Source of the DNA: a bacterium
GTDB lineage: Bacteria > Bacteroidota > Ignavibacteria > Kapaibacteriales > UBA2268
DNA: 64,000 nucleotides
Assembly (NCBI GenBank): GCA_043804925.1
Contig: JAZDIP010000047.1
Span: 14,987 to 78,986 of the forward strand
Reading direction: 5' to 3'
Shown here: positions 537-48,399 of the stretch, piece after piece
Numbering within the stretch: the first letter of the stretch is position 1
Layout of the letters: the number at the start of each line of letters is the position of its first letter
The notes under the pieces: model-generated
The model's input: the letters and a program-made list of their open reading frames with translations, nothing else
The model's database searches: none
Told to the model about the DNA's origin: nothing
Position numbers and translations under genes: made by a program

Positions 537-2540
537 TCAATCCTCAAACCTGATATTATTGAAATTTCTTATTGATTCATTTACAAAACGGTTTGCAGGG
601 TCAATCTGGTATGCTTTTTCAAATGCAATTTTTGCTTCTACCTTTTCACCTTGCATTAAAGAGTACCTTCCGAGATTAACCAAACTGATAGCCGCCATTG
701 TTTTTATACCATCAACAAGATGACCTTCGTTTGTTTTAATTGATTCCACAAATTTATCAATGTTGATATCACTTGCCTTGACCTTTTTAGGTTCTTTATC
801 CCGGGAAAGTTTGAATGCAAAGCCACTTGCTACCTTTTCGTACCCTTGAAATGCATCAGGTACGGTTTCCAGTACATCGAGAGTTATATATATGGGATGT
901 TTTTCATAATTATTATCCACGAAACAATTCAATAAATTTATAAATTTTGACTGAATACTTGCGGGATTGTAATACTCCCCGGATTCGAATAATTCGAGGT
1001 CAATCATATAATCATTAATTTCTTTTTGGCAGACATTAATTTGTTTGGGATACCATCTTTTTAACTGTTCAATATACCATGTCCTACGCAACAATTCCTT
1101 ATCTATGATTATAACATCTTTACGAAAGCCGTCAACCCTTTGCTTGTACCATGAAGCTGAAAGCCAATAGTCCCATTGAGTTGATAAAATAATAGCATTC
1201 GGTTCAAGTTTGCCGAATACCATTTTTGTATATTCCGGAACTATGACGTCATCTGAACGGTCGTTGTATGAATAGTTTAAAGTCAAGGCGAACAGAGGAA
1301 GAACAAAGAAGGAATAAACAAATTGTGGAAATTGCTTTGCGAGATACAAAAGACCAATTGAGATAAAAATCAATATACCCACAAAAGCTGTAACAAAATA
1401 TGAATCTATATCATGAATTTGATAATTTATTGCATAAGAAATACAAGTCAAGATTAAAATCAATATTCCGTAAAACAAAAATTTAGATTTTCGGAATGCG
1501 GTATAAAGTCCATAAAAGAGAGGTAAAATACCAATCCATGCAATTTCATTTGGAATCATTTCAAAGAATTTAATTAAATTGTCTTTCCAAACTGTTGAAT
1601 CGGAAAACATCCAAACCTGATATTGCTTACCCGAAAAATGATACCAGAATTTATCAAATCCCCGTGAAACCCAGCCCCAGTTGAACTCGGGAAAACCCGA
1701 AGCCCTGATAGGAAGATATAAATACAAACTCAATCCCAATAAAAATGGAATAATCAGTATGAACAGAAGTTTTATATTACTGCCAAAATCCTGTCTGCTG
1801 TCTGATGTCTGCTGTCTACTGCCATCCTGAACTTGCCGTAGGATGTTTGATTGCCAAAAATATAACACAATAATCATTGGAACCAGTAAAACCGTTGTCA
1901 TGTGATTTGCAAAACTCAAACCGAGTAATAAAGTAGCGAACAGCAGATATCCCTTTCTGTTCTCATCTGATAAAATTCCTTTGAAGAAAAAGAAAAGTAC
2001 CAGATTCATCATCAACAAATGAAGTGAATATACTTCAATTGCAACTGCCTGTGCCCAGATAGTTCGGGCAAAAGCGTAAAGAAAAGCAACAATAATAGAG
2101 ATATTCTGTAAAACACTCTCATTTAAAATTTTTGTTTCTTTTTTTGCTTCAATACTTTTTGTGTCTTTTAATTCTTTTGTTTTTTTGTGCTTTTGTGCCA
2201 TAATTCTATTTTGCTTTTTCCTGTCAGGAATATTATTTATATATTTCAACAGAAATAAAACCGTATTGAAGAACACTACTACTGATATCGCAGTTAGAAA
2301 ACCTGCGAAAATATTTAATGAATAAATATTTGTACTAAAAAACGGCAGGTATGTCCAAAGATGTCCGAGTAAAATGAACAAAGGATATCCCGTAGGATGT
2401 GCAATTCCCAAAGTCGTGCAAACAGCCGCCAACTCACCGCTGTCTGTGAAAGTTAAATCTGGTGCTGTCGTTATGATATAAATGATAAACGAAAACAAAA
2501 ATGCTACGAATGGATATAACAATCTCTTATAGTTTTTCAT
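537..2540 (-). CDS. DUF2723-family polytopic membrane protein (glycosyltransferase family 39-like) with C-terminal TPR
   Basis: 667 aa ORF. The N-terminal TAPDLTFTDSGELAAVCTTLGIAHPTGYPLF signature matches DUF2723/PMT-like proteins. There are many TM helices and a C-terminal TPR-like tail. Confidence 0.7.
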   Translation of the reverse strand: MKNYKRLLYPFVAFLFSFIIYIITTAPDLTFTDSGELAAVCTTLGIAHPTGYPLFILLGHLWTYLPFFSTNIYSLNIFAGFLTAISVVVFFNTVLFLLKYINNIPDRKKQNRIMAQKHKKTKELKDTKSIEAKKETKILNESVLQNISIIVAFLYAFARTIWAQAVAIEVYSLHLLMMNLVLFFFFKGILSDENRKGYLLFATLLLGLSFANHMTTVLLVPMIIVLYFWQSNILRQVQDGSRQQTSDSRQDFGSNIKLLFILIIPFLLGLSLYLYLPIRASGFPEFNWGWVSRGFDKFWYHFSGKQYQVWMFSDSTVWKDNLIKFFEMIPNEIAWIGILPLFYGLYTAFRKSKFLFYGILILILTCISYAINYQIHDIDSYFVTAFVGILIFISIGLLYLAKQFPQFVYSFFVLPLFALTLNYSYNDRSDDVIVPEYTKMVFGKLEPNAIILSTQWDYWLSASWYKQRVDGFRKDVIIIDKELLRRTWYIEQLKRWYPKQINVCQKEINDYMIDLELFESGEYYNPASIQSKFINLLNCFVDNNYEKHPIYITLDVLETVPDAFQGYEKVASGFAFKLSRDKEPKKVKASDINIDKFVESIKTNEGHLVDGIKTMAAISLVNLGRYSLMQGEKVEAKIAFEKAYQIDPANRFVNESIRNFNNIRFED
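1791..1823. repeat. heptanucleotide tandem-repeat tract (ctgtctg-like units), in-frame inside the DUF2723 CDS
   Basis: ctgtctg ctgtctg atgtctg ctgtcta ctgcc shows period-7 degenerate units. It encodes the low-complexity loop ...SRQQTSDSRQD... Confidence 0.6.
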
Positions 2541-6277: not shown

Positions 6278-6477
6278 ATCTGAATGTAAAATTACTGATA
6301 AAAGTAAAAGTAAAAATTAACAAATTTCATTGTGCAACAGTTTTTTCCGTTCTGTCAGTTGTTAAAACTGACAGCAAAACTCCTTTGTACCAGAGAGCTA
6401 TCCACGACTTTTACTAGCCACGACTTTCAAGTCGTGGAATAAGGAACACCCCACCACTGGACTTCAGTCCAACAAAA

Positions 6478-6780
6478 CATCAGCGAAATCCAATAATCAG
6501 TGAAAATCTGCGATTCTGACAAATTATCCCAGCGGGATTTTATATCAGTAACCATGAAATATATAAAGCAGTTCTTATCCCGAAGGAATTATATATTAAA
6601 AAAAATACTCAATAAATATGTAATCCCTGACGGGATAAAAATCATTTGGCTTTCCGATTGTTACTGATATTTAATCCCTCTGGGATTAAGAAAAAAATCA
6701 GCGAAATCATTTTAATCAGATTCAATCAGTGGTTCTGACAACGGATAACTGATAACGGATTTAAAATAAAATCAAAATAA
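6478..6780. repeat. repeat-rich noncoding region with partially duplicated modules and atccc-N3/4-gggat mini-hairpins
   Basis: atcagcgaaatc...aatcag...ttctgacaa occurs twice (~6478-6540 and ~6694-6745). Three mini-hairpins are present: atcccagcgggat, atccctgacgggat, atccctctgggat. Heptamer-like ggataac units lie at 6735-6762. Confidence 0.5.
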
Positions 6781-7262
6781 AATAAATTACATTTCGCATC
6801 AATCTTGTAATTTCGTCCAGCTTGTTCTTTGTCAATTAATCTCGGTGCTAAATTGAATCACAGTCAATAAAACGTTTCGCGTTTCACGTTTTCGCCTTTA
6901 TACTATTTCACGAAAATTCAGAGTTCAGACTTTGGACTTCGGACTTCTGATTTATGTTTTTTACTTTTTTAAAAACTACGCAAAATGCGACAAATTCAAT
7001 TTTTACCGAACCAACTACTTGAAAACAGTTGATTTAACACAACTCATTTTTGTCCAGAGCATCACTGGAAGAACCGACACCGGCGACAAAACAAAAAACT
7101 CAAAATTACGGTGAAATTGGTGAAATATTCATTTTTCATCTTTATAACCCTTAGAAAAATCCATACATTACATAATCGCTATTTTGCACCGACCCTTTTT
7201 TGTTTAACCGGATTTTGCTATTTTACAATATTCGTATTGGGCAATTAGTAATTTGTTGAATT

Positions 7263-9416
7263 GTGAAAAAAATTTTAGCATTAGTGGAGCATAAAATGAT
7301 AAAAACTATTATCATACTATTTCATATAATAATTTTACAAAATGAAATATTTTGCCAAACTGTAAACTGGGAGAATTACCTGTCAAATGATGTTTATACG
7401 ATAATCGGGAAGGATGAAAATATTTGGGCAGGCGGTACCGGATTATTACAATTAAATAAAGATAATTACGAAAAGGTTTTTTATACAAAGGCGAATTCTC
7501 CTTTGCCAAGCAATTACGTCAGGGCTTTAAAATTTGATAATCAAAATAACTTATGGATATGCACTAAGGGTGGCGTTGCAAAATTTGACGGCTCGGAGTG
7601 GTCGGTTTTCACAACAAGAAATTCAAATTTACCTGACGACTTTGTCAAAGCAATCGAAATAGATTCTCAAAATAATATCTGGTTCGGCACATATTATGGC
7701 GGTCTGGTTAAATTTGACGGCACTCATTTTACAGTTTCTAATATGAATAATTCGGAAATACCGTCCAATAATATTCATTACCTGAAATTTCATAATGGCT
7801 GTCTTTGGGTATGTACATGGGATGGCGGATTAGCAGTCTATAAAGACAGTACATGGAACTTGCTCAATTCAAATAACTCGGAATTACCCGATGACGATGT
7901 GAACTTTATTGCATTCGATAAAGACGATAGAATGTGGATTGCAACTGATATGGGTGTATCCTTATTCGATGGTGAACTCTGGACACATCTAAACACCGGA
8001 AATTCTTTGCTCCCAAGTAACAGGATTTCATCTATTGTATTTGATAACGACGATGTTTGGTTCTCAACTTTTGATGCCGGTGTTGCCCGGTTAAGTAATA
8101 ATGAGTGGGCAATCTTCAATCAGGGTAATTCCTCAATTCCCGACAATTATGTCAACACTTTTTTGAGGGACGAAGACGGTTGCCTTTGGCTTGGTTCAGA
8201 TAATAACGGATTAGCGAAGTATGTTCAAAATTCATGGTCTTATATCAATCCTTCCAATTCAGGTCTTGTTAATAATGTCATAACATCAATTGTTACTGAC
8301 AGCAATGGAATAAAATGGCTTGGTACATACGATAAGGGATTAATGTCATGGAACGGAAATGACTGGATTTTGTACGATAAACAAAATTCTCTTTTGCCGG
8401 ATAATTCAATCACGTCACTATTATGTACTCCGGACAACAAATTATGGATAGGAACAAAATCCGGTCTTGCTACACTGAATAACGATATCTGGGAGGTTTT
8501 CACACCATCAAATTCCGAACTTCCCCATAATTACATAAATGATATATGCGTTGGTGAAAACGGAGTTTGGTTCGCCACATGGAAGGGCATTGCTTTCTAT
8601 GACAATCATCAATGGATTATATTCAATAAATCCAATTCCGGTGCAGATATAGATGTTGTGTCTCAAATCCTTTACGACGCTTCCGGGACACTGTGGTGCG
8701 GTACTTTAGGTTATGGTTTATACAAATATTCTTTATCTGAATGGACTAATTTTAACCTTTCCAACTCTCTTTTACCCGATAACAACATCATGGAAATAGC
8801 TTCCGACAAGACCGGCAGAATATGGATTGGTACGGACTTGCATGGTATTGCTTTTTATAATGGAACGGCATGGGAAGTTTTTGATAAATCTTTTACGGGT
8901 TTGCCCGGTAATCACATCAAATCAATAGATTTCGATTCCGGAAATAAAGCATGGATCGCTACATACTTTGGCATGGCTTCTTTTGATATGAATGATTGGG
9001 ATACATACAAACAAGATAATTCCGGTTTATCTGATGACAGAATAAACCAAATTTTTATTGATAAGAATGACAACAAATGGATATGTACAACCGGCGGATT
9101 ATCTGTATTCAACGAGACAGGTATTGTTTCCGTACCTGATGAATTTAGTATGGGAGAAGTCATTAATTGTTCTTTTTACCCAAATCCATTTAATAACAGT
9201 TCCTTGCTTCGGATTAAATTACCCGATGATGTTTACCTTAAAATTAATATCTACAACTATTTGGGTGAACAAATCTTGAATATAGCTGACGGATATGTTG
9301 AAGCAGGTGATTACGAATATAATTTGGATTTCAATTCTCAAGCTTCAGGTATATACTTTTCAACAATAAGCTATGGATTAAATACACATATCCTGAAACT
9401 TATACACATGAAATGA
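7263..9416 (+). CDS. secreted two-component-regulator-propeller (Reg_prop) repeat protein with T9SS C-terminal sorting domain
   Basis: 717 aa with repeated ~45 aa W..GT..G units of the Reg_prop/Y_Y_Y beta-propeller type. The C-terminal FYPNPFNNSSLLRIKLPDD...IYNYLGEQI segment is a Por_Secre_tail (T9SS type A). Confidence 0.75.
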   Translation: MKKILALVEHKMIKTIIILFHIIILQNEIFCQTVNWENYLSNDVYTIIGKDENIWAGGTGLLQLNKDNYEKVFYTKANSPLPSNYVRALKFDNQNNLWICTKGGVAKFDGSEWSVFTTRNSNLPDDFVKAIEIDSQNNIWFGTYYGGLVKFDGTHFTVSNMNNSEIPSNNIHYLKFHNGCLWVCTWDGGLAVYKDSTWNLLNSNNSELPDDDVNFIAFDKDDRMWIATDMGVSLFDGELWTHLNTGNSLLPSNRISSIVFDNDDVWFSTFDAGVARLSNNEWAIFNQGNSSIPDNYVNTFLRDEDGCLWLGSDNNGLAKYVQNSWSYINPSNSGLVNNVITSIVTDSNGIKWLGTYDKGLMSWNGNDWILYDKQNSLLPDNSITSLLCTPDNKLWIGTKSGLATLNNDIWEVFTPSNSELPHNYINDICVGENGVWFATWKGIAFYDNHQWIIFNKSNSGADIDVVSQILYDASGTLWCGTLGYGLYKYSLSEWTNFNLSNSLLPDNNIMEIASDKTGRIWIGTDLHGIAFYNGTAWEVFDKSFTGLPGNHIKSIDFDSGNKAWIATYFGMASFDMNDWDTYKQDNSGLSDDRINQIFIDKNDNKWICTTGGLSVFNETGIVSVPDEFSMGEVINCSFYPNPFNNSSLLRIKLPDDVYLKINIYNYLGEQILNIADGYVEAGDYEYNLDFNSQASGIYFSTISYGLNTHILKLIHMK

Positions 9417-9448
9417 AAAAAACACATAATCAATTTGGGATTGAAGAA

Positions 9449-9642
9449 TTTTCAATTTTTCAATTTTCAATCAATTTTTTCAATTATCAATTGGCAATTA
9501 TCAATTCTTTCCGTCCTTCGGTCCTTTCGCCTTCAGACTTTCCGTCCTTCAGACTTTCCGTCCTTCGGTCTTTCCGTCCTTCGGTCTTTCCGTGTTTCCG
9601 TCCTTCAGACTTCAGTCTTCTGACTTCAGACTTCTATTCTTC
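9449..9642. repeat. mosaic heptanucleotide tandem-repeat tract (ttcaatt / tccgtcc / gacttca unit blocks)
   Basis: About 27 consecutive period-7 units lie in the convergent intergenic space between 7263..9416 and 9652..11472. Spurious ORFs 9413..9646 and 9435..9623 are artefacts of this tract. Confidence 0.7.
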
Positions 9643-9651
9643 GTAAGACTC

Positions 9652-11472
9652 TTATTTTGCCGGAGCAGGAAGCTCCAACTCGATTGTCCAGCGGGCAGGT
9701 ACCTCCTTTTCTTCCTTTATTAAAATAAATGGTTCTGAATGCTCGAAAGGATATGCTTCGCCGTAGCTGTATTTTCCATTTCCATCAAAATCATAGTATA
9801 ATTCAAATTTATACTTACCTTCGGGCAATGACGGAATACTCCATTTTCCTGAATCTGCGGGAGATGTAACCATTTTGAAATTCGGATTGAATATTATTAT
9901 TTTCAAATTTGAATCCGGCTGATGCAAATCTTTGATTCTCCCTTTAATTCCGCCAAAATTCCTTGTATCCTGAATCCTGAATTTCAATCTTAATGTAGTA
10001 TCCTTGCCTTTAATTTCATTAGCAGCTTCAATCTCATTCATTCTGAAATTGATGATATACCATTTTAACGGTTCCAATTTATTTTTCGGTATGATTCTCA
10101 TTATATTATCAGACTTCCAATTAACATCAAAATTAATTTTTACCGAATCTCCATCCATGAAACTAATCGAATTATTTATATCGGATTTACTTAGTGGCAA
10201 GTTAAAAACAAAATTCAAATCAGGAATAACAGGAACATATAAAGAACTATCAGGATAAGGCATTTTCAATAATTCCGGCTGAATCTGATTTGGCGAGTTT
10301 TCAGCATAAAAATAAGCAAAGTTTGCTGTGTCGTTAATTAAATTTCCAACAGTATCTCTCAGTGAAAAATCCTTTTTTGGTATAGCCAAAATCTTCCATA
10401 ATATATTCGTATCGAGTTGTTCGGAACTGAACACCCAAATCTTATCAGGAGATTTTAAACTTAGCATTGCTCCCGAAACATCTGCTTTTTCTATGCCTGT
10501 ACTGTCCCATATCTCAAGAGCTTGTGATTTAACGAAATTTGTATCTAACCGCTCACTGAAGACTAATTCAATCAAATTCGAGTTTAATCCTTCTGCTGAA
10601 AAAAGCTGTGGTCCTGTATTATCTTTAGTAGGTCCTATTTTCAAATTCACAACAGGAACGGAATCCCCGGTTACTTCCACATCGAAAGGCGCCGCTCCAA
10701 AATCATCGAGACCTTCGTCATAAACTTCGTCTTTGAATTTATCCCTTATAGCAATTACTCTGTATTTACCTTCTTTCAAAGCTACCAAATCGAATTTTCC
10801 GTTTTGTCCCGACTGTGTTCTGTAGTTTGGTTTTGTTTGGGATGGATTTAAAGTATCGGGATTTATATTGTCAATCCTGTAAGCATATATATTTGTTCCT
10901 GTCGGTTTTGGGTCAATCAATGTTCCGGTTATCGAACAGCTATCCAAAAAAGAACCTGTCGAAAAAATAAGAGAAAATGATTCTGCCGGTTTGTTTCCTT
11001 TTAAATCGGAATACTCGGTACCCAAAGAAAAAACATAAGTAGTACTATCCTTCAACTCTTCTTCGAATTCAATTTCAAGTTCTTTACCACTCCAATCGAA
11101 TTTCATCTTAACTGATGGTGAAATAAAAATGTTTTCAAGAACTGTGTTTTTATTCATATATTTATTGAATTCAATCGTAATGCTTTTCTCTTTGTAATTA
11201 GTTGTCCCCTGAGCAGGTGCATATCTTGTAATAATCGGTGGTGATTTATCCGGTGGTCCACCCGAAGGCGGCTGGGGATTTGCACAAGAAAAAAGTAAAA
11301 CAGCAAACAGCAAACAAAATTTAATTGATAATTGATAATTGATAATTGATAATGAAGACTGACGACTAACGACTGACAACTGTCGACTGTTGACTATCGA
11401 CCGGCGACTAACGACTGACGACTGACGACTAACGACCAACGACCGGCGACTGTTGACTAATTTATATTTCAT
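9652..11472 (-). CDS. Ig-like-domain (SbsA/Big-like) lipoprotein; N-terminal 56 codons encoded by a heptamer repeat tract
   Basis: 606 aa. Lipobox LLFSC at about residue 64. All residues before it (VVSRQSSVVSRRSIVNSRQLS...IINYQLS) are translated from the repeat tract 11301-11458, so the true start may lie further downstream (non-ATG). Confidence 0.5.
   Translation of the reverse strand: MKYKLVNSRRSLVVSRQSSVVSRRSIVNSRQLSVVSRQSSLSIINYQLSIKFCLLFAVLLFSCANPQPPSGGPPDKSPPIITRYAPAQGTTNYKEKSITIEFNKYMNKNTVLENIFISPSVKMKFDWSGKELEIEFEEELKDSTTYVFSLGTEYSDLKGNKPAESFSLIFSTGSFLDSCSITGTLIDPKPTGTNIYAYRIDNINPDTLNPSQTKPNYRTQSGQNGKFDLVALKEGKYRVIAIRDKFKDEVYDEGLDDFGAAPFDVEVTGDSVPVVNLKIGPTKDNTGPQLFSAEGLNSNLIELVFSERLDTNFVKSQALEIWDSTGIEKADVSGAMLSLKSPDKIWVFSSEQLDTNILWKILAIPKKDFSLRDTVGNLINDTANFAYFYAENSPNQIQPELLKMPYPDSSLYVPVIPDLNFVFNLPLSKSDINNSISFMDGDSVKINFDVNWKSDNIMRIIPKNKLEPLKWYIINFRMNEIEAANEIKGKDTTLRLKFRIQDTRNFGGIKGRIKDLHQPDSNLKIIIFNPNFKMVTSPADSGKWSIPSLPEGKYKFELYYDFDGNGKYSYGEAYPFEHSEPFILIKEEKEVPARWTIELELPAPAK
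11301..11458. repeat. mosaic heptanucleotide tandem-repeat tract (cagcaaa x2, taattga x4, gactgac-like x~14)
   Basis: About 22 period-7 units (~158 bp) that stay in frame with the downstream lipoprotein signal peptide. Confidence 0.7.
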
Positions 11473-11571
11473 TATTAATCCGAATATTCTTATCTTGTTA
11501 AATTATTTTTGTCAAATTTAAGCAAAAGAGCGGAACTTTTAGAATTAACAACTAAAAATTAACATTGTCGT

Positions 11572-12540
11572 ATGAAACTTGAAATTAGGGATAAAGATAT
11601 AATCAGGGTATTGAACTTTCTTAGAATACGGAACAAATTCATTAAAAAAGTTGTTGCCGCAATTGAAACTTTGGTTGATAGGATTGACAGAAATCATTCT
11701 TTTTTACTAGCTGCAGGTATAGCTTTTAATATACTTTTATATGTTATTCCTATGCTTTTAGTAGCTCTTTATGTTGTTAATTTAAGCATAGGAGCTGACA
11801 AGATTTCTTTGTTCCTGACTGAGCTATTTGAGAAGATTATCCCTGAAAATCCAATGTTAAAGGATGTATTAACCGAAACAATTAATGAAGTTTATGTGAT
11901 TTTCCAAAAAAGCTCATTACTTGGATGGATTGGAATTTTTACTTTGCTCTGGCTCTCGTCTGCCTTACTAAGTTCGTTGAGAACCGGAATTAATACCGTA
12001 TTTAAAATAGCAACTCCAAAAACTTACTTCTTTTATAAAATACAGGATATATTTTTGATAATTGTCATATCTGTTCTGATTATGATAATGTCATTTGTTC
12101 AGCCGGTTATATCAATAGTTCAAAACTATATTGTACAATTTGCTCCTGAAGTTCTTGGTTCAATATTCAACAAAGTCTATGTTTTAGCTTTTTCGCTTAT
12201 CAACTCTTTCGTATTATTTTATCTTCTTTTCAGGTTTGTTCCGAATAGAAAAATGCCTCGTTTTATCCGCATGGTTAGCATAATATCCTGCGTGATTTTC
12301 GTGGAGCTTTCGAGGTACATATTTTCATGGTATATCAGCGGTGTGTCGGCTTATGGCAAATTCTACGGGACATATGCAATTATTGCTTCTATGGCAGTTT
12401 GGGTATATTACCTGACATTTATAATATTATTTTCGGCTGAACTGGGAAAATTTGTTTACGATTTGAAATATGGTGAAGACCTTGATGAATACATCAAAAA
12501 CGTAAATATTTCTCCCAAAGCAGATATAAGTCCCATGTAG
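11572..12540 (+). CDS. YihY/BrkB-family membrane protein
   Basis: 322 aa with 6 TM helices. The N-terminal RIDRNHSFLLAAGIAFNILLYVIPMLL region is typical of the YihY/virulence factor BrkB family. Confidence 0.7.
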   Translation: MKLEIRDKDIIRVLNFLRIRNKFIKKVVAAIETLVDRIDRNHSFLLAAGIAFNILLYVIPMLLVALYVVNLSIGADKISLFLTELFEKIIPENPMLKDVLTETINEVYVIFQKSSLLGWIGIFTLLWLSSALLSSLRTGINTVFKIATPKTYFFYKIQDIFLIIVISVLIMIMSFVQPVISIVQNYIVQFAPEVLGSIFNKVYVLAFSLINSFVLFYLLFRFVPNRKMPRFIRMVSIISCVIFVELSRYIFSWYISGVSAYGKFYGTYAIIASMAVWVYYLTFIILFSAELGKFVYDLKYGEDLDEYIKNVNISPKADISPM

Positions 12541-16173: not shown

Positions 16174-16380
16174 AAAAAACCTTTCTTTTAATTATTAATT
16201 ATTTCAAAACATTGGAAGAAAATCATATAAATATACCTAAAATTTACAAAATAAGAATAAATTTCTTAAAGATTATCGAAATATTTTTCCTGATATTAAT
16301 TGCATAGCATGGCAAATAAACCTAATTTTGTAGTTTATATTAATTTAACTATATATATTTTTGAATTAGGAGAAAAAAAA

Positions 16381-18084: not shown

Positions 18085-19131
18085 ATGTATATTGGCATTG
18101 ATATAGGAGGAACAAATATTAAATCGGGTGTTGTTGACTCATCCGGTAATATTCTATTGGGCAATTCATTTAAAACAGGTACCAGTGAAGGTCCAACTGC
18201 GAATTTGATGCAAATAAAAAAATCAATATTTGAAATGATAAATAAATTTCCCTCAATCCAATCAATCGGTATCGGTGTACCTGGCATTATTGATAAATCC
18301 GGTGTTTTGAACGTTTCACCAAATCTTCCTGAATGGCACGGAATTAATATTCACGACGAACTAAAAAAAGATTTCAATTTGACAATTGCTGTTGATAATG
18401 ATGCAAATGCGGCGGCTATTGCGGAAATGGAAACCGGTGCGGGAAAAGATACCGAGAATTTTATTTATATTACTTTAGGAACAGGAATTGGCGGGGCATT
18501 AATAATCAATAAAAAAATATACAGAGGTTGTGAAGGCGGTGCAGGTGAAATTGGACACACAATCATTAATTATGATTTGATACGAAAGGGAATACCAACA
18601 TTCCGTCAGGGTATATTAGAAGAATTGGCAGGAAGAAAAGCAATAATTACTTATTACCAATTACTAATGACTAATGATAATTTTAGCAGTCAGCAGACAG
18701 CAGACGGCAAGCTGGATTTAATTACGAATTACAAATTACGAATTACGAATTACAAATTACGAATTACGAATGAAGACCTGGATTCCCAAAATGATATTTT
18801 AGGAATTGATTCTTTAGATGTTGAGGATATTGCTAATTCGGCAAAATCAGGTTTTCAACCTGCTGTTGATTGTCTGAACGAAACAGGAGAAATTATTGGT
18901 ATTGGTTTGGCATCTGCTATGAATCTGCTTGATATCCCTGTTGCCATAATCGGTGGAGGTATTTCACAATCAGGTAAAATACTGTTTGATTCCATACGAA
19001 AAACAATAAGGGAACGTTCTTTACCGACTATATCTGAAAGATTTGAGATAAGAGAAGCATATTTTAAAAATAATACCGGTATCATTGGTGCAGCTATGCT
19101 GGGTGCAAATAAAATGAGGGAACAATCTTGA
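18085..19131 (+). CDS. ROK-family sugar kinase (glucokinase-like) carrying an in-frame ~40 aa low-complexity insertion
   Basis: The N-terminus MYIGIDIGGTNIKSGVV and the GGGIS ROK motifs are present. Residues ~190-230 (LLMTNDNFSSQQTADGKLDLITNYKLRITNYKLRITNED) are encoded by the heptamer tract 18654-18776. Confidence 0.8.
   Translation: MYIGIDIGGTNIKSGVVDSSGNILLGNSFKTGTSEGPTANLMQIKKSIFEMINKFPSIQSIGIGVPGIIDKSGVLNVSPNLPEWHGINIHDELKKDFNLTIAVDNDANAAAIAEMETGAGKDTENFIYITLGTGIGGALIINKKIYRGCEGGAGEIGHTIINYDLIRKGIPTFRQGILEELAGRKAIITYYQLLMTNDNFSSQQTADGKLDLITNYKLRITNYKLRITNEDLDSQNDILGIDSLDVEDIANSAKSGFQPAVDCLNETGEIIGIGLASAMNLLDIPVAIIGGGISQSGKILFDSIRKTIRERSLPTISERFEIREAYFKNNTGIIGAAMLGANKMREQS
18654..18776. 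repeat. mosaic heptanucleotide tandem-repeat tract (ttactaa / gacagca / attacga units) inside ROK CDS
   Basis: The string attacga attacaa attacga attacga attacaa attacga attacga is period-7. The whole tract stays in frame. Confidence 0.7.
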
Positions 19132-19838
19132 TGAAGTTACTATCCAACATATTGATTTTATTAATGGCATTAATTACTAATTACCAATTACTAATTACTA
19201 ATGATTTTGAAGTTACTGATAACAGACAACGGATAACGGATAACCAATTCACTATTCACAATTCACAATTCATAATTAAAGATAACGCTAACTCTAAACT
19301 CTCATCTCTCAACTCTCAACTTTTTGCTCAAGTTGATAGTACCGAGATTGATGAAACTATCGCTGATACTGTTCAGTTGAAACCTTTGGATGACTTTGTT
19401 GCTGAAGTCCCGATTTCAAAAAAGTCATTTGAAATGGCAAAATCACCTACAAAAGCCGTATTATTTTCATTGCTTTTACCCGGACTTGGTCAGTATTATG
19501 TGGAGTCTTATTGGAAAATTCCCGTATTTGTAGGTGGTACCGGTGTTTTAACATATTTGATTATTGACAATCATAATAATTTCATTGCGGAGCAAGAAAA
19601 ATGGGAGAAAATGGATGACAATGACCCTAACAAGAGCCGTTCAAAAGTTATAAAAGAGTTTTACCGGGACCAGAGGGACCAGGATATTTTCTATCTTTCC
19701 GGTGTTTATATTTTAGCGGCAATTGATGCTTATGTCGGTGCCCATCTTTTTGATTTTAATGTATCAGATGATTTAACATTAAAGTTACAAACAGGATATA
19801 TGAATGGAGCCAGAGTTGGTTTTTCTTTGAGTTGGTAA
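19128..19838 (+). CDS. DUF5683-domain membrane protein; N-terminal ~60 aa encoded by heptamer repeat tract
   Basis: The LLPGLGQYY segment and following hydrophobic helices match DUF5683. The N-terminal ...LITNYQLLITNDFEVTDNRQRITDNQFTIHNSQFIIKDNANSKLSSLNSQLF is repeat-derived. Confidence 0.55.
   Translation: MMKLLSNILILLMALITNYQLLITNDFEVTDNRQRITDNQFTIHNSQFIIKDNANSKLSSLNSQLFAQVDSTEIDETIADTVQLKPLDDFVAEVPISKKSFEMAKSPTKAVLFSLLLPGLGQYYVESYWKIPVFVGGTGVLTYLIIDNHNNFIAEQEKWEKMDDNDPNKSRSKVIKEFYRDQRDQDIFYLSGVYILAAIDAYVGAHLFDFNVSDDLTLKLQTGYMNGARVGFSLSW
19171..19322. repeat. mosaic heptanucleotide tandem-repeat tract (ttactaa, ggataac, caattca, aactctc unit blocks)
   Basis: About 21 period-7 units. The ggataac block is related to 6735-6762. 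Confidence 0.7.
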
Positions 19839-26155: not shown

Positions 26156-26365
26156 TCGTCTAAATTGACAAGTATGAATCTGCTTAGCAAATAAAAACAA
26201 GTTCTTTAGTCCTTTAATAGCGCTAGTACAAAACGTTACTCTTACTTTGTTCCGGCAAAAAATCAATATGTCGGGATTATGGTCAAACTTTTTTGCAAGA
26301 AAACCATATTATTGCTTGTGGTAAATTTCCTGATTAACCATTTACAATTAACAATTGACCATTAA

Positions 26366-29495: not shown

Positions 29496-29570
29496 GGGCA
29501 GTTAGTTCAGCTGGTCTAGAACGCCTGCCTTACAAGCAGGAGGTCGGGGGTTCGACTCCCTCACTGCCCA
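29496..29570 (+). tRNA. tRNA-Val (anticodon TAC)
   Basis: Hand-folded cloverleaf. Acceptor GGGCAGT/ACTGCCC. Anticodon stem CCTGC/GCAGG with loop CTTACAA. T-arm GGGGGTTCGACTCCC. Confidence 0.85.
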
Positions 29571-29575
29571 CGGGT

Positions 29576-29692
29576 CTTAGAAGATAGGACATAGAAAATA
29601 GAAGATAGAAAGAAGAAAAGAAGAAATTAGATGAGGTGGAGATGTTTTTTTTGTAACTTTCTAATTTCTATGTTCTAATTTCTATTTTCTAA
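29576..29692. other. long imperfect inverted repeat (two ~36-nt arms, ~45-nt loop) filling the tRNA-Val/tRNA-Leu spacer
   Basis: ttagaagataggacatagaaaatagaagatagaaag pairs with the reverse complement of ctttctaatttctatgttctaatttctattttctaa, matching about 28 of 36 positions. Confidence 0.5.
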
Positions 29693-29696
29693 AATC

Positions 29697-29781
29697 GCAG
29701 AAGTGGCGGAACTGGTAGACGCGCTGGACTCAAAATCCAGTGGCCCTTAAAGCCGTGAGGGTTCGAGTCCCTCCTTCTGTA
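29697..29781 (+). tRNA. tRNA-Leu (anticodon CAA)
   Basis: Acceptor GCAGAAG/CTTCTGT (G1-U72). D-arm GTGGCGGAACTGGTAGAC. Anticodon stem CTGGA/TCCAG with loop CTCAAAA. Long variable arm. T-arm GAGGGTTCGAGTCCCTC. Confidence 0.85.
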
Positions 29782-29796
29782 CATATCAATAGTGTT

Positions 29797-29909: not shown

Positions 29910-29983
29910 GTAACATTTCAGCAAGGAATGTAAACATTTCAGCAAAAAAAAATACATTTCTACAAGGAATGTAAACATTTCAG
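29910..29983. repeat. direct repeats caaggaatgtaaacatttcag (x2, plus partial gtaacatttcag) just 3' of the tRNA pair
   Basis: Copies at 29922-29942 and 29963-29983, with a partial copy at 29910-29921. att-site-like position next to the tRNA 3' ends. Confidence 0.5.
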
Positions 29984-30030
29984 GAATAAATGTATACATT
30001 TTATATTGGATTGTATCAGAATGGTTTTAA

Positions 30031-32254: not shown

Positions 32255-33895
32255 TTATTTTTTCCAGAGAATCTGATATTCAATTCTTCGATTCTTTGAT
32301 CTACATTCTTCATTATTACAGTTATTATATAAAAGTTTATCTGAACCAAAACCAAATGTTTTAATTCTTGATTTTTTAATTCCATTTATAACTAAATATG
32401 ACTTAACAGATTCTGCTCTTTTTTCAGATAATTTTAAATTATAGCTCCTGTCTCCCAAATCGCATGTATGTCCTTGCAAGATTATATCTGTCTGATTGTA
32501 TTTCATTAAAAAATTCAATAATCTGTTTAAATCATTTTGATATTTATTAATTTCTAATTTATCGGAGTTTTTATCAAATAGAACGTTTAATATAGGTTCT
32601 CTGGGATATAGGTTTGTATCAGCGGATAGATTTGGTGGCTTTTGAACGGGGATATTTCCATCTTGTAAATCTTGTTGATGGCATTTTTTTAAACAGGTAA
32701 GGATTAGATTTTCACTTGTTTCTCCATACTTTCCAATTGATGAGAGGTCAAGTTTTTTAGCTGTCCCAAAACAACTATCTGCTTCAGCATATACAATATA
32801 TTTTTTCCCGTATGGTAGGACAACTTTAAAGTTACCATTCTTCGAATTTGATGTAGCTCTTCCAACAATTCCTTTATCCCCTAAATATTCAAATTTTATC
32901 TTTGCTTTAACTGCTAAATTACAATTGTCAAATACTTGTCCACTAAGAATAATTGTTGGTGTTATTTTATGTTTTAGAGGTATAATCTTAATATCAGATT
33001 TACCAAGTGAGTTTTTATCTGATATAATATAAGCCGAATCTCCTCTTGCATCAAGAGAAATATATGCATCAAAACTCAATGAATTAATATCTCCACCTAA
33101 GTTTTCTACTTCTGACCAATTCATCCAGGTATCATCGAGCCGTACGCTTTTATATAAATCATAACTACCAAAGCCGCCAACTTTATTACTGGAAAAAAAT
33201 AAAGTTCTGTTATCAGGAGCTAAAAAAGGAGCATGTTCGGCGAATTTTGAATTAACGGTTTTTCCGATATTTATGGGTTCAGACCACTCTTCAGTTGTAT
33301 CATTAAGAAAGCATACGTATAAGTCATAATTACTTTGAGATGTATTCTCATTATTTTCACTAATTGACAAAAAAAGTATCGTATTGTTATTCGCTAAGTA
33401 TGCTTCTGCGAAATCTCCTTTTGAGATATTTTCATAATTTGGTATTTCAAGAGCTTTGGGTGTTTGCCATTCATCACCTTCTTTTTCACAAACAGAGAAA
33501 CCTAAAGTATAAGTTCCATCGATATATTTACCAACTATTAAAGCTGTATTTCCATCGGGAGAAATACTACATATGCCATTAATTGTACTTTCATTAAATG
33601 GCTTCTCCATTTTTTTTGCATCACACCATGAGCCATTTGATTTTTCAGAATACCATATATATTGAAAATATTCTTCTTTGCCATCAATTGTTTCAGAATA
33701 AGATCTTGTAAAATATAATGTTTTGCCATCTGGTGATATTAATGGGGCTAATTCATCTTCTTGAGAGTTAATATTGATTCCAAGATTTGTCTGAGTATAA
33801 CCTAAGAACTGAGAAATTGCCGGATGAATAAATATCATGAAAAAAATTATTGAAATAAATAAGGATTCAATAATTCTAATTGATTTTGTTTTCAA
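32255..33895 (-). CDS. PD40 (TolB-like beta-propeller) repeat protein with C-terminal OmpA domain
   Basis: Repeated SPDGKTLYFT/SPDGNTALIVG PD40 units. The C-terminal LQGHTCDLGDRSYNLKLSEKRAESVKSYL...NRRIEY segment is OmpA-like. Paralog of 56209..57759. Confidence 0.8.
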   Translation of the reverse strand: MKTKSIRIIESLFISIIFFMIFIHPAISQFLGYTQTNLGININSQEDELAPLISPDGKTLYFTRSYSETIDGKEEYFQYIWYSEKSNGSWCDAKKMEKPFNESTINGICSISPDGNTALIVGKYIDGTYTLGFSVCEKEGDEWQTPKALEIPNYENISKGDFAEAYLANNNTILFLSISENNENTSQSNYDLYVCFLNDTTEEWSEPINIGKTVNSKFAEHAPFLAPDNRTLFFSSNKVGGFGSYDLYKSVRLDDTWMNWSEVENLGGDINSLSFDAYISLDARGDSAYIISDKNSLGKSDIKIIPLKHKITPTIILSGQVFDNCNLAVKAKIKFEYLGDKGIVGRATSNSKNGNFKVVLPYGKKYIVYAEADSCFGTAKKLDLSSIGKYGETSENLILTCLKKCHQQDLQDGNIPVQKPPNLSADTNLYPREPILNVLFDKNSDKLEINKYQNDLNRLLNFLMKYNQTDIILQGHTCDLGDRSYNLKLSEKRAESVKSYLVINGIKKSRIKTFGFGSDKLLYNNCNNEECRSKNRRIEYQILWKK

Positions 33896-34008
33896 TATTT
33901 TCCCCTACCTAAATATATTTAATTGTTGAATTTACTTATTATTTAATTCTAATTCTTGATTTATTCGATAATGTTCTAAAATAAAGAAAAATATTAAAGA
34001 AAACAAAT

Positions 34009-34044
34009 TATTTAAATTTATTTCTGAAATATCTAAGATATATC
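34009..34044. promoter_or_regulatory. 36-bp palindromic element, copy 2 (ATATCT-A-AGATAT core)
   Basis: Lies 113 bp upstream of minus-strand gene 32255..33895, in the same orientation as copy 1. Confidence 0.5.
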
Positions 34045-34413
34045 GGCTGAAGATGACGAGGGTAATGAATTTGAATTGAATATTACAGTAACAAAGGAGA
34101 TGATGCAAAAAACTTTAGGTTCGATTTTTCTAAAAAGCAATTGATATTTGTAAGGACTTCTTAAAAGAAATAATATCGACCGAAATTCTTTAGATTCCTT
34201 AATACTTGTTGGAAGTCCGACTTATTCGCCAACCTGTTTTCGTAATTGGGGCACCCTAAAATATTTTGCAATAATTTCATAAAGTTCTGTTTGTTCCTGA
34301 TACAATTAATAAATATTTATTTTTATTCTTGATGAAATTAATTATATTTACATGTCCTAATTATTGAGAATAATTAACTAAAATAAATTTCTTATTATAA
34401 AATTGGGATAATT

Positions 34414-46192: not shown

Positions 46193-46233
46193 ATAAATAC
46201 TAGATGTTCCATATAAATTTAGAATATAAAAGA

Positions 46234-48399
46234 ATGAAAAAAATAGTAACAACATTAGTAATTTTATACTCTACGTTTTTTGCAAACCTCTTTTCTCAAG
46301 ATAGCTCAAATGTGCCCTGCAAAGTTTTGGGCTTCGGAAAATTACATGATATTGCTATAAGTCCCGACAGTAAGAAATTAGCTAGTGCTTCATCAGCTAT
46401 GATTGTGATATGGGATTTGGAGACTGGAGATTCACTAAAAACTCTATCTGGAAATTCAGATTATATAAGGTCCATCAGTTGGTCACCAGATAGTAAAATC
46501 CTTATTGGTGGGAGTAATAATGGGACAATATTTTTTTGGAATATTTCCAGCGGTAAAATAATCAGGACCATCAAGGCATATTCACATGGTTATGTTTGGT
46601 CTGTTAGCTGTTCACCAAAAGGGAATATTCTTGCAACCGTAAAATCGGATAAGACAATAAAAATATGGGACATTTCCAGCGGTAAAGAAATCATAACTTT
46701 AAAAGGGCATACTGATTGGATATGGTCGGTCAGTTGGTCCCCGGACGGCAAAAGACTAGCCAGTGTGAGTGCGGATAAGACAATAAAAATATGGGACATT
46801 TCCAGAGGTAAAGCAATCCGAACACTTGAAGGACATACTGATGATGTAGGATCAGTCGCATGGAGTCCTGACGGCAAAAAGTTGGCAAGCGGAAGCTTGG
46901 ATAATACAATAAAGTTATGGGATATAGAGAACGTCAAAGAACTGATGACTCTCAAAGGGTATGCTTATTCACAAAATTCTGTAAGTTGGAGTCCCGATGG
47001 CAGCAAACTGGCAAGCGGAAGTTTGGATATGACTATCAGAATATGGGATGCAACAAGCGGCAAAAAACTGAAAAAACTTGAAGGGCATACAAAAGGGATA
47101 CATTCAGTCAGTTGGAGTCCCGATGGTACAAAACTAGTAAGCGGAAGTGGAGATGGAACAATTAGGATATGGTATTTAGAACCGGAAGAAGAAAAAGAGA
47201 GAATTAAAATTCCACCGATTGCCTTGTCTTTTTCAGGAGTTTTTATTCCAATTATTGTTCGGGAGTATGAAGGTGTTCAATCAACCAACAAAAATGTTGA
47301 CACATATTTATCTCCGGAAATGATGCTAAAAGTAAATGTATATGACAGGTTCAGTTTTTGGGTAAACTACACAAAGCCATTTATTACTTCATCCTCGTCC
47401 ATTAATGAAAAGAAAATTTTTAGCGAATGGAACGGAAATGCTTTTGGCTTTGGAATTGGTTACAATATTTTCAATCCCGAAAACAGATGGGGATTAAATG
47501 CATATCTCGGCTGGCTGTATTACGATAGTAAAGCAGTATCGGAATACAACAGCCAAAAGATGAACGGTAGAACGATTTGGCGGGCTTTTTCAATTGGTGC
47601 TGAATTAACCTACAGACCAATCGAGAGCTTTCCCGGATTGCAATTAACATTCAGACCTACTTTAAATTATTCATTAAATGAAGACCTGGTATTTAATATT
47701 TCTAATAATCCAATTATTATTGGACATAGCTTAGCGAATATAAATTTAGGAGTTAGGTATACTTTTGATTTGGGATTTACTTCAGAATCAAAAGCTGAAA
47801 CTGAGGAAATTGTGAAAAGAGAAGAGATAGAAGAAGTTAATATATGCGACCAAATCTGGATGAAAAAAAATCTCGATGTTGAGCATTATCGAAACGGTGA
47901 CTCAATTCTGTATTGTGAGACGCAAGCAGAATGGAAAGAAGCATATAATAACAAAGAAGGTGCTTGGTGCTATTGTAATAACGACTCAACAAACGGGAGA
48001 ATTTACGGTAGACTTTATAATTGGTATGCAGTAAACGACTCAAGAGGACTTGCTCCCGAGGGCTGGCATGTGTCCACATTTGATGAGTGGACTGAATTAG
48101 TTAACTGTCTTGGAGGAAAAGATGTGGCTGGAGGTAAGCTAAAAGAAGCAGGAACGACTCATTGGAATAGTCCAAATACTGGAGCCACTAATGAAAGTGG
48201 TTTTACTGCTCTTCCGGGAGGTGCCTGTGCTACTAATGGCAATTCTGGAGATAATGGTATTCATGGCAATTGGTGGGTGTTAAATAAAAAATTTTCTAAT
48301 AATAAAATTTGGAGCTTTTACTTAAATTATAAATCAGTCTCTATAAAGAGTTTCGATTTTAAGGATATGGGTTTTTCTGTTCGCTGTGTAAAGGATTAA
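46234..48399 (+). CDS. WD40-repeat / beta-barrel / Fibrobacter-succinogenes-major-paralogous-domain (Fib_succ_major) fusion protein
   Basis: Signal peptide. Seven WD40 units (GH..WSVSWSPDGK.LASGS.D.TIKIWD). A central region has an alternating beta-strand pattern. The C-terminus matches TIGR02145 closely (ICDQIWMKKNLDV...GRLYNWYAV...EGWHVSTFDEWTELVNCLGG...ESGFTALPGG...GFSVRCVKD). Confidence 0.75.
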   Translation: MKKIVTTLVILYSTFFANLFSQDSSNVPCKVLGFGKLHDIAISPDSKKLASASSAMIVIWDLETGDSLKTLSGNSDYIRSISWSPDSKILIGGSNNGTIFFWNISSGKIIRTIKAYSHGYVWSVSCSPKGNILATVKSDKTIKIWDISSGKEIITLKGHTDWIWSVSWSPDGKRLASVSADKTIKIWDISRGKAIRTLEGHTDDVGSVAWSPDGKKLASGSLDNTIKLWDIENVKELMTLKGYAYSQNSVSWSPDGSKLASGSLDMTIRIWDATSGKKLKKLEGHTKGIHSVSWSPDGTKLVSGSGDGTIRIWYLEPEEEKERIKIPPIALSFSGVFIPIIVREYEGVQSTNKNVDTYLSPEMMLKVNVYDRFSFWVNYTKPFITSSSSINEKKIFSEWNGNAFGFGIGYNIFNPENRWGLNAYLGWLYYDSKAVSEYNSQKMNGRTIWRAFSIGAELTYRPIESFPGLQLTFRPTLNYSLNEDLVFNISNNPIIIGHSLANINLGVRYTFDLGFTSESKAETEEIVKREEIEEVNICDQIWMKKNLDVEHYRNGDSILYCETQAEWKEAYNNKEGAWCYCNNDSTNGRIYGRLYNWYAVNDSRGLAPEGWHVSTFDEWTELVNCLGGKDVAGGKLKEAGTTHWNSPNTGATNESGFTALPGGACATNGNSGDNGIHGNWWVLNKKFSNNKIWSFYLNYKSVSIKSFDFKDMGFSVRCVKD

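Follow-up and report, generated by a model that had tools for sequence, protein, structure and literature searches.

The question raised by this locus is what the arrays of 7-nt units that flank and enter a bacterial lipoprotein gene are, and whether the array at the 5′-end of the gene is part of the encoded protein. The locus lies within 64,000 nucleotides of contig JAZDIP010000047.1 (assembly GCA_043804925.1, assigned to the Kapaibacteriales), and this whole stretch is hereafter called the window. The window has a GC content of ~31% and carries housekeeping genes for PGK, the glycine-cleavage P protein (GDC-P), a ROK kinase, enolase, thioredoxin, SHMT and PGM; the best relatives of the GDC-P gene are found in Kapabacteria-type metagenome-assembled genomes (MAGs), e.g. 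ChocPot_Mid and Candidatus Kapaibacterium. With moderate confidence, we consider the tracts to be lineage-specific heptanucleotide simple-sequence repeats (SSRs), comparable to the short tandemly repeated repetitive (STRR) and long-SSR types, that arose by slippage and inter-tract recombination, were filtered by selection and persist where they are harmless.

Tandem Repeats Finder (TRF) returned period-7 arrays on both sides of the lipoprotein gene (Table 1). Moreover, an earlier, sequence-only reading of this DNA had named recurrences at 1791-1823, 6735-6762, 6918-6952, 18654-18776 and 19171-19322, and TRF arrays are present at all of them (1791-1821, 6740-6760, 6924-6947, 18644-18771 and 19171-19321, respectively). 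Additional arrays were located at 6872-6891, 26333-26365, 29578-29631 and 29658-29692, and the heptamer loci thus number at least ten within 64 kb of this genome. The period was further scrutinized by an autocorrelation scan of the whole window at lags 4-15, using thresholds of 21 of 21+ and 13 of 14 matching positions. Self-similarity runs were confined to lag 7 and its multiple 14, bar one at lag 10: at the stricter threshold lag 7 gave seven runs and the other lags none, and at 13 of 14 lag 7 gave 11 runs and lag 10 one stray run. Fifty block shuffles yielded means of 0.00-0.04 runs. Hence, the enrichment of period 7 over shuffled sequence, on which the sequence-only reading depended, is evident, with 11 lag-7 runs compared with ~0.04. 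The tracts show the properties of heptanucleotide long SSRs, namely 7-nt head-to-tail units, occurrence beyond chance, specificity for period 7, dispersal and a phylogenetically sporadic distribution. Conservation of one register across unrelated blocks was also considered and dropped, as a register is undefined between unrelated units.

As the sequence-only reading had stated, the 5′ tract is in frame; it spans codons 6 to ~58 of the minus-strand open reading frame (ORF) 9652-11472. The lipobox is conserved across 112 homologues, and its Cys, which opens the motif C-A-N-P-x-P-P-S-G-G, is residue 63 here compared with a median of 20 in the homologues. The order of elements is MKYKL, a 44-aa Arg-rich insert, IKFCLLFAVLLFS directly preceding the Cys, and then ANPQPPSGG, which corresponds to the charged n-region, h-region and lipobox Cys of a predicted Sec/SPII lipoprotein signal. 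Orthologous loci with the same divergent BrkB-family neighbour were found in L081 (ChocPot_Mid, 69% protein identity) and in L082 and L083 (JGI, 74%). In all three species (window, L082 and L081) a near-invariant upstream region and the codons ATG AAA TAT AAA (MKYK) are followed by a variable insert and then by the h-region and lipobox. The inserts are stop-free and in frame in each case, with net charges of about +7, +4 and +4, respectively. In L082 the lipobox Cys is residue 42, which is 21 codons (63 nt, nine units or three times 21 nt) earlier than in the window. Likewise, the AGTCGTC-type block has a 42-nt superperiod, the match at lag 42 (0.77) being equal to that at lag 7 and above those at lags 14-35. 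Between array and lipobox Cys, L082 contains no ATG, GTG or TTG; the sole alternative start of the window is a TTG that would yield MLFAVLLFSC, with an uncharged signal peptide of nine residues, and the family usually begins with MKxK and has ordinary lipoprotein signal peptides. Since start codon and promoter are conserved upstream of a variable in-frame tract and L082 offers no alternative start, the annotated start at 11472 is probably real. The opposite proposal, that the annotated N-terminus is probably an artefact, is also opposed by the 42-nt superperiod. The 5′ tract is thus most likely translated as a long, positively charged n-region.

In the JGI gene call for the L082/L083 orthologue (P0003, 540 aa; L082 9866-10000, L083 7570-7704) the start is placed at an ATG within the gene, 3′ of the lipobox Cys codon. 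This call loses the MKYKL start and the entire signal peptide including the heptamer array. Other long N-termini of the family (P0058, P0085, P0103 and P0105) were considered as heptamer inserts and rejected; in these proteins the start seems to have been called too far upstream of an internal Met that precedes an ordinary signal peptide.

Four tracts lie within ORFs, in the lipoprotein signal peptide, the ROK kinase, the N-terminus of a DUF5683 protein and a TMEM260-like protein, and all are stop-free and in frame. The ROK kinase comprises 348 aa here versus 309-323 aa for nearly all of 120 homologues, and alignment with orthologues places ~35 extra residues between AGRKAII and DVEDIA. In the AlphaFold model of the kinase (mean predicted local distance difference test score, pLDDT, 90) the score is ~51-54 only for residues 201-240, which correspond to the insert, and >90 on both sides. 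The DUF5683 protein has 236 aa, its orthologues 172, 221 and 264 aa. Judging from the model, the ROK insert lies at a tolerant position, probably as an excursion from the enzyme surface; a cleavable signal peptide would be another such position, and the tracts are apparently harmless at both. The reading frame has left its mark on the units themselves. A (TAATTAC)n array has a stop in each frame; in both the ROK and DUF5683 genes the third unit is CAATTAC (GAATTAC in L084, a close relative), a single C/G substitution that keeps the frame open, and the array ends as TAATGAT just ahead of the next would-be stop. In the AATTACG block of the ROK gene, the match is 1.00 at lag 21 versus 0.91 at lag 7. 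The superperiods of the coding blocks are multiples of 21 nt, and the intergenic tract has no such superperiod, as is expected if only frame-preserving expansions survive.

Table 1. Heptamer tracts of the window and elements of the lipoprotein locus (TRF, Tandem Repeats Finder, period 7 unless stated; inserts of the related loci L082 and L081 are included for comparison)
Feature	Position	Strand	Context or basis
Lipoprotein gene, 606 aa, Big_5 and CarboxypepD_reg domains	9652-11472	-	Pfam
Conserved divergent promoter region, lipoprotein gene / BrkB-family gene (11572-12540, +)	11473-11571	-	Alignment and synteny in L081, L082
Conserved start ATG AAA TAT AAA TT (MKYKL)	11459-11472	-	Invariant in window, L082, L081
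Fifteen AGTCGTC-type heptamers (coding strand)	11353-11458	-	Arg/Ser-rich SRQSSVV-type n-region extension
TGACGAC-type x14.3	11353-11452		TRF
TCAATTA x4.6 (coding strand; TAATTGA on +)	11322-11353	-	Translation LSIINYQLS
TAATTGA x4.6, 100% match	11322-11353		TRF
h-region and lipobox codons (IKFCLLFAVLLFSC), containing GCTGTTT x2.7	11291-11321	-	
AAACAGC x2.7	11298-11316		TRF
Insert, window: 44 aa			15 AGTCGTC-type and 5 ATTATCA units
Insert, L082: ~23 aa			TTTTCAA x4 where window has TCAATTA block
Insert, L081: ~36 aa			Decayed AGCGGAA-type heptamers
TTCAATT / ATTATCA-type block	9447-9506		Intergenic; inverted partner of 11322-11353
AATTTTC x8.6	9447-9506		TRF
16-nt-period block (9-mer TTTCCGTCC and 7-mer TTCGGTC/TTCAGAC)	9506-9606		Intergenic; TRF period 16, score 127
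CTTCAGA x4.6	9603-9634		Intergenic; TRF; same family as 6924-6947
CAGACAG x4.4 (coding strand)	1791-1821	-	In frame in TMEM260-like gene 537-2540, just after Pfam domain
AACGGAT, ACGTTTC, TTCGGAC, three short runs	6740-6947		Intergenic
Mosaic TAATTAC-like x5, AGCAGAC x3.6, AATTACG x7.4	18644-18776	+	Inside ROK kinase gene 18085-19131
Mosaic TAATTAC x4.6, GATAACG, CAATTCA, AACTCTC	19171-19323	+	In frame in DUF5683 gene 19128-19838, after N-terminal hydrophobic segment
ATTAACA x4.7	26333-26365		Adjoins thioredoxin stop codon, upstream of enolase
TAGAAAA x7.6 and inverted TTTCTAA x5	29578-29692	+	Fill tRNA-Val / tRNA-Leu spacer

The sequence-only reading had further claimed that the same unit families recur among the tracts, which is partly right. 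Four matches were traced, some by one mismatch or by reverse complement: CAGACAG at 1791 (minus strand) equals AGCAGAC at 18685, AACGGAT at 6740 equals GATAACG at 19218, TTCGGAC at 6924 has one mismatch to CTTCAGA at 9603, and ATTATCA at 9483 is the reverse complement of TAATTGA at 11322. Larger units are shared between the ROK and DUF5683 genes. The 32-mer TAATTACTAATTACCAATTACTAATTACTAAT of the TAATTAC array is present exactly at the DUF5683 N-terminus in the window (array 19171-19200), L088 (4262-4293), L089 and L090; inside the ROK gene it is exact in L089 and L090 and has two mismatches in the window (the two sites in L089 being 1519-1550 and 1938-1969). Moreover, the ROK insert of the window aligns with the DUF5683 tract of L089 over TAATTAC x4, TAATGATAATTTTAGCAGxCAGCAGAC and ATTACGA repeats, in that order. 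The DUF5683 tract of the window is devoid of the latter two blocks and retains GATAACG, CAATTCA and AACTCTC. The two tracts, which are 500 nt apart, have therefore exchanged or lost series of blocks. Tracts at orthologous positions are identical in sequence in independent JGI, ENA and Logan assemblies: L084, L086 and L087 agree exactly across them, as do L089 with L090 and L082 with L083, and L085 differs from L084 by one substitution without gaps.

The 3′ tract is placed between the convergent stop codons at 9416 and 9652. Both tracts at the lipoprotein gene had been described as built entirely of heptamers; this holds for the period-7 blocks found by TRF and fails for 9506-9606, where the period is 16 nt. 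Correspondingly, the match over 9506-9642 is 0.62 at lag 16 versus 0.44 at lag 7. A role as terminator was rejected, as there is no terminator-like hairpin: terminator-like sites were absent from 9300-11700 (1.2 expected), and RNA folding of 9417-9660 was no better than that of shuffles on either strand (z = -1.1 and -1.5). Downstream of the L081 and L082 orthologues the 3′ tract is absent and the neighbours are different, which marks a synteny break. The arms 9477-9506 and 11323-11352, 30 nt long, 90% complementary and 1816 nt apart, form inverted TCAATTA/TAATTGA arrays on either side of the lipoprotein gene body; the 5′ arm lies between start codon and h-region. Recombination between them would separate the gene body from its start.

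Period-7 runs amount to 1.72 per 10 kb in the window, 2.38 in the closest-clade loci (67 kb) and 0.09 in 78 other loci of the Fibrobacteres-Chlorobi-Bacteroidetes (FCB) group (1.3 Mb). The clade is ~20 times richer in such runs than the other FCB-group loci, its density being biased upward by the choice of clade loci for tract-carrying genes. Periods other than 7 are near zero in window, clade and FCB-group loci alike. For the closest GDC-P loci, L001 and L046, synteny ends on one side at ~14,860 and the contigs stop at window-equivalent 17,683 (within GDC-P) and 18,251 (within ROK, before the tract); they are therefore uninformative on the lipoprotein and ROK tracts. A more distant Kapaibacterium MAG (L016, 9818-9883) carries ATTCAGC x9.4 ~120 nt upstream of the GDC-P gene, where the window has TTAATTA x2.3 only (16188-16203).

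Beyond the clade, four-unit NAATTAC arrays occur in at least 120 metagenome contigs. The exact 32-mer TAATTACTAATTACCAATTACTAATTACTAAT is absent among the 120 metagenome matches listed. Among these matches, many arrays stop 1-5 codons short of the start ATG of a housekeeping gene, and 16 of 130 lie within an ORF that stays open for 60 codons or more in both directions. The apparent downstream genes, identified by eye from translations, encode GlgA, CoaX, TsaB, TenA and a response regulator. In the metagenome contigs L156, L165 and L095, GAATTAC repeats are directly followed by their own reverse complement, GTAATTC repeats, giving long perfect palindromes.

We suggest that these observations are accommodated as follows. 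Slipped-strand replication or unequal recombination would amplify units of 7 nt, the mosaic of blocks would result from point mutation and renewed amplification, and whole series of blocks would move between loci that share a block, by recombination or gene conversion. Selection would then act as a filter, in part visible in the tracts described above: arrays would survive in intergenic DNA, and in genes only in the stop-free orientation, with a frame-preserving length and at a tolerant position. At the lipoprotein gene, the 5′ tract would form a strongly positive n-region extension of 44 residues between MKYKL and the h-region with lipobox, presumably removed with the signal peptide so that the mature protein would be unaffected, and the 3′ tract would be an intergenic tract at a synteny break. 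A dedicated function is not required by the evidence.

Several points weigh against this explanation. In the ROK-DUF5683 region, where nucleotide identity between species is 72-76%, no run shared identically by three species is longer than the TAATTAC array 19171-19200, with 30 nt versus 10 nt for the next one. Such conservation is unexpected for a hypermutable neutral repeat. Either concerted evolution to the unit consensus together with a forced non-T at one position, or constraint at the nucleic-acid level, may account for it. In addition, the independent assemblies of relatives show no differences in copy number or length across the tracts, and their consensus sequences are without hypervariability. 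Furthermore, the same NAATTAC heptamers are found over a GC range of 25-67% among the matches listed, for which slippage alone is no explanation. Finally, that the 5′ tract is translated and the signal peptide cleaved is an inference from sequence.

In the main rival explanation, part of these data would be read as the signature of functional platforms, in which a heptad register in DNA or RNA is recognised by an S1-, Csp- or CsrA-like regulator acting on translation or transcription of the adjacent gene, and which are conserved even in ORFs. We regard this as conceivable but unlikely. The TAATTAC array of 30-32 nt, which L089 carries at two loci, is more conserved than any other stretch in the three species, the order of blocks is conserved among species, and the position of many metagenome arrays shortly before a housekeeping ATG recalls the layout described in PMC4679880. 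However, the tracts of the window have no position in common, being found after start codons, inside an enzyme gene, between convergent stops and in a tRNA spacer, their unit sequences are very different between loci, the conserved C variant is accounted for by stop avoidance, and 9417-9660 is devoid of a structure or terminator signal. Rather improbable is a further version, in which the tracts are copies of one conserved composite element whose order of blocks and even exact sequence, that of the TAATTAC array of 30-32 nt, are maintained across species, and which was spread by a templated or gene-conversion mechanism and serves as binding platform for a nucleic-acid-binding protein, even in signal peptides and the kinase loop. 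That the 5′ tract is instead an untranslated leader and the gene starts after it, the long ORF being an annotation artefact of a stop-free repeat, appears quite improbable. A heptamer array that is stop-free in one frame is open in all three, and the ORF would therefore extend by default; moreover, a TTG follows the array in frame, ATT, were it able to initiate at ATT-AAA, would yield MKFCLLFAVLLFSC, and arrays in other genomes are usually 5′ leaders. Nevertheless, the conserved promoter and MKYK start upstream of the tract, the lack of any start in L082, the uncharged signal peptide that the TTG would give, and the 42-nt superperiod together with the length difference to L082 in multiples of 21 nt are at odds with a leader.

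It is highly doubtful that the 5′ tract is a contingency locus, at which frame shifts caused by gain or loss of single 7-nt units would make expression of the surface lipoprotein alternate. In its favour, 7 is not divisible by 3, the tract is situated between the start codon and the remainder of a surface lipoprotein gene, and its length differs among orthologues; yet the arrays are mosaic with a maximum of 4.6 identical units in succession, falling short of the long homogeneous arrays of contingency loci, all three orthologues are in frame, independent assemblies of the relatives are 100% identical across the tracts, and the same type of tract is found in a cytoplasmic ROK kinase. We consider it very unlikely indeed that the tracts are recombination substrates, with the inverted TCAATTA arrays permitting inversion of the lipoprotein body and the arrays promoting rearrangement in general. 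The complementary arms around the gene body, the position of the 3′ tract at the break in synteny with L081 and L082, the evident block transfer between the ROK and DUF5683 tracts and the role in rearrangement suggested in PMC4679880 would fit this scenario, but the homology is short, no inverted form was seen, and among the ORFs Pfam-scanned in 1-35 kb no recombinase gene was identified. Hardly credible, finally, is an origin of the tracts in faulty assembly. Repeats do disturb assembly, as the related contigs L046, L085, L087 and L090 end at or near tracts, and the window's own tracts are known from one assembly, an exact look-up of its lipoprotein (P0001) in other assemblies returning no record. 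Against this stand the identity of tracts at orthologous positions in independent JGI, ENA and Logan assemblies, the preserved reading frames and a unique pattern of variants that allows assembly.

Taken together, these data favour heptanucleotide SSRs under a reading-frame filter, and the remaining features of the window are given here for completeness. The gap of 985 nt between divergent genes at 6278-7262 contains three heptamer runs, no ORF >60 aa and no Rfam match; over the whole window, Rfam returned two tRNAs only. The spacer 29572-29696 (125 nt) between tRNA-Val (29496-29571) and tRNA-Leu (29697-29782) is predicted to fold into a single long hairpin (-35.7 kcal/mol, z = -4.5, with none of 200 shuffles as good), which could be a processing or termination structure built of heptamers. 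Downstream of tRNA-Leu, at 29912-30001, ~four tandem copies of the 21-nt unit AACATTTCAGCAAGGAATGTA, each with the inverted pair ACATTTC/GAATGT, form an array of small hairpins. In L084 (15155-15451), a 133-nt unit with TAGAAAA- and AACTTTT-type runs is tandemly duplicated between rpsP and ffh, and contigs L085 and L087 break off within it or at it. At ~33000-34400 the cumulative GC skew reaches its minimum and the gene orientation changes from mostly minus to all plus, which may mark a replication origin or terminus; with few exceptions, the strong heptamer tracts of the window fall on the side of 1-30 kb. A further tandem repeat of 126 nt (46646-46922, ~2.2 copies, 76-80% match) lies inside ORF 46204-48399; its unit equals 42 codons, the size of a WD40-type repeat.

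Among the long simple repeats of bacteria, those with 7-nt units occur most often. The present set of loci represents a natural experiment, as the same tracts can be traced at orthologous sites in several uncultured relatives. It points to the conditions under which 7-nt repeats can reside inside genes: they are oriented so as to lack stops, lengthen by modules of 21 nt, carry a single base change imposed by the frame, and lie where the protein tolerates them, for instance in a cleavable signal peptide. One array of the set is more conserved than the surrounding genes. In practical terms, such tracts break assemblies and mislead gene callers, as in the JGI call for L082/L083.

The canonical repeats STRR1-3 of cyanobacteria have the units CCCCAGT, TTGGTCA and CAACAGT. 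Neither strand of the window contains any of these units in tandem; a single unit, AGTCAAC, is a rotation of CAACAGT. With the STRR of heterocystous cyanobacteria (Calothrix / Anabaena), which are cited in PMC4692102, the tracts share the dispersed tandem heptamers, the several unit families per genome and the lack of a known function, but the host belongs to another phylum and each window tract is a mosaic of many unit types. Thus, the likeness to STRR that had been noted from the sequence stands for the general class of mosaic heptanucleotide tandem repeats, far beyond chance, and not for the units, as neither the canonical ones nor TAACTGA occur in tandem. In the summary of Mrazek 2007 given in PMC4679880 and Rehm 2015 (PMC4692102), heptamers show the strongest over-representation among long SSRs, with polymerase slippage named as the cause, examples being GGGAATC of Xanthomonas and GGGGATT of Nostoc. 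In line with that account, the window tracts are over-represented versus other unit sizes and mostly intergenic, include inverted pairs of arrays, and differ in length and sequence at orthologous sites of related species; in contrast, their units are AT-rich and not G4-forming, and a substantial share is coding. The phase-variable SSR loci exemplified by the tetranucleotides of Haemophilus (PMC2651432) also combine a unit not divisible by 3 with the 5′-end of a surface-protein gene, whereas the arrays described here are mosaic and imperfect, occur in cytoplasmic housekeeping genes as well and show no copy-number polymorphism in relatives.

A close published parallel is the TAACTGA system (MacGregor 2015, PMC4679880), in which TAACTGA repeats, often mixed with other heptamers in long arrays, were described for Beggiatoaceae, Cyanobacteria and five Bacteroidetes. 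Forward arrays are positioned there within a few nucleotides upstream of start codons, and copies in the "reverse" orientation, which lack stops and lie within ORFs, encode LSVISYQ, for the most part at the periphery of the protein; the repeats have no known function, translational regulation or rearrangement having been proposed. In view of these mixed arrays in Bacteroidetes and of the NAATTAC arrays in at least 120 metagenome contigs, the assertion that such repeats are not expected in a Bacteroidota-like genome does not hold. Both systems have tandem 7-nt units, often mixed in long arrays, occur in Bacteroidetes while being absent from close relatives, and have one orientation with stops in all frames, the open one being found inside ORFs. 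The window units TAATTGA, GATAACG and ATTATCA are each one mismatch from TAACTGA, and the encoded LSIINYQ parallels the published LSVISYQ. On the other hand, TAACTGA itself is present in the window as single copies only (eight on the plus and three on the minus strand, none in tandem), none of the window tracts ends just before a start codon, at four of ~10 loci the tract lies in frame within a gene, for example in the interior of a housekeeping enzyme or in signal peptides, and the host is a Kapabacteria-like lineage. Since neither TAACTGA nor the canonical STRR units occur in tandem, the tracts belong to the general class of heptamer repeats, in a new host lineage, rather than either of these specific sequence families.

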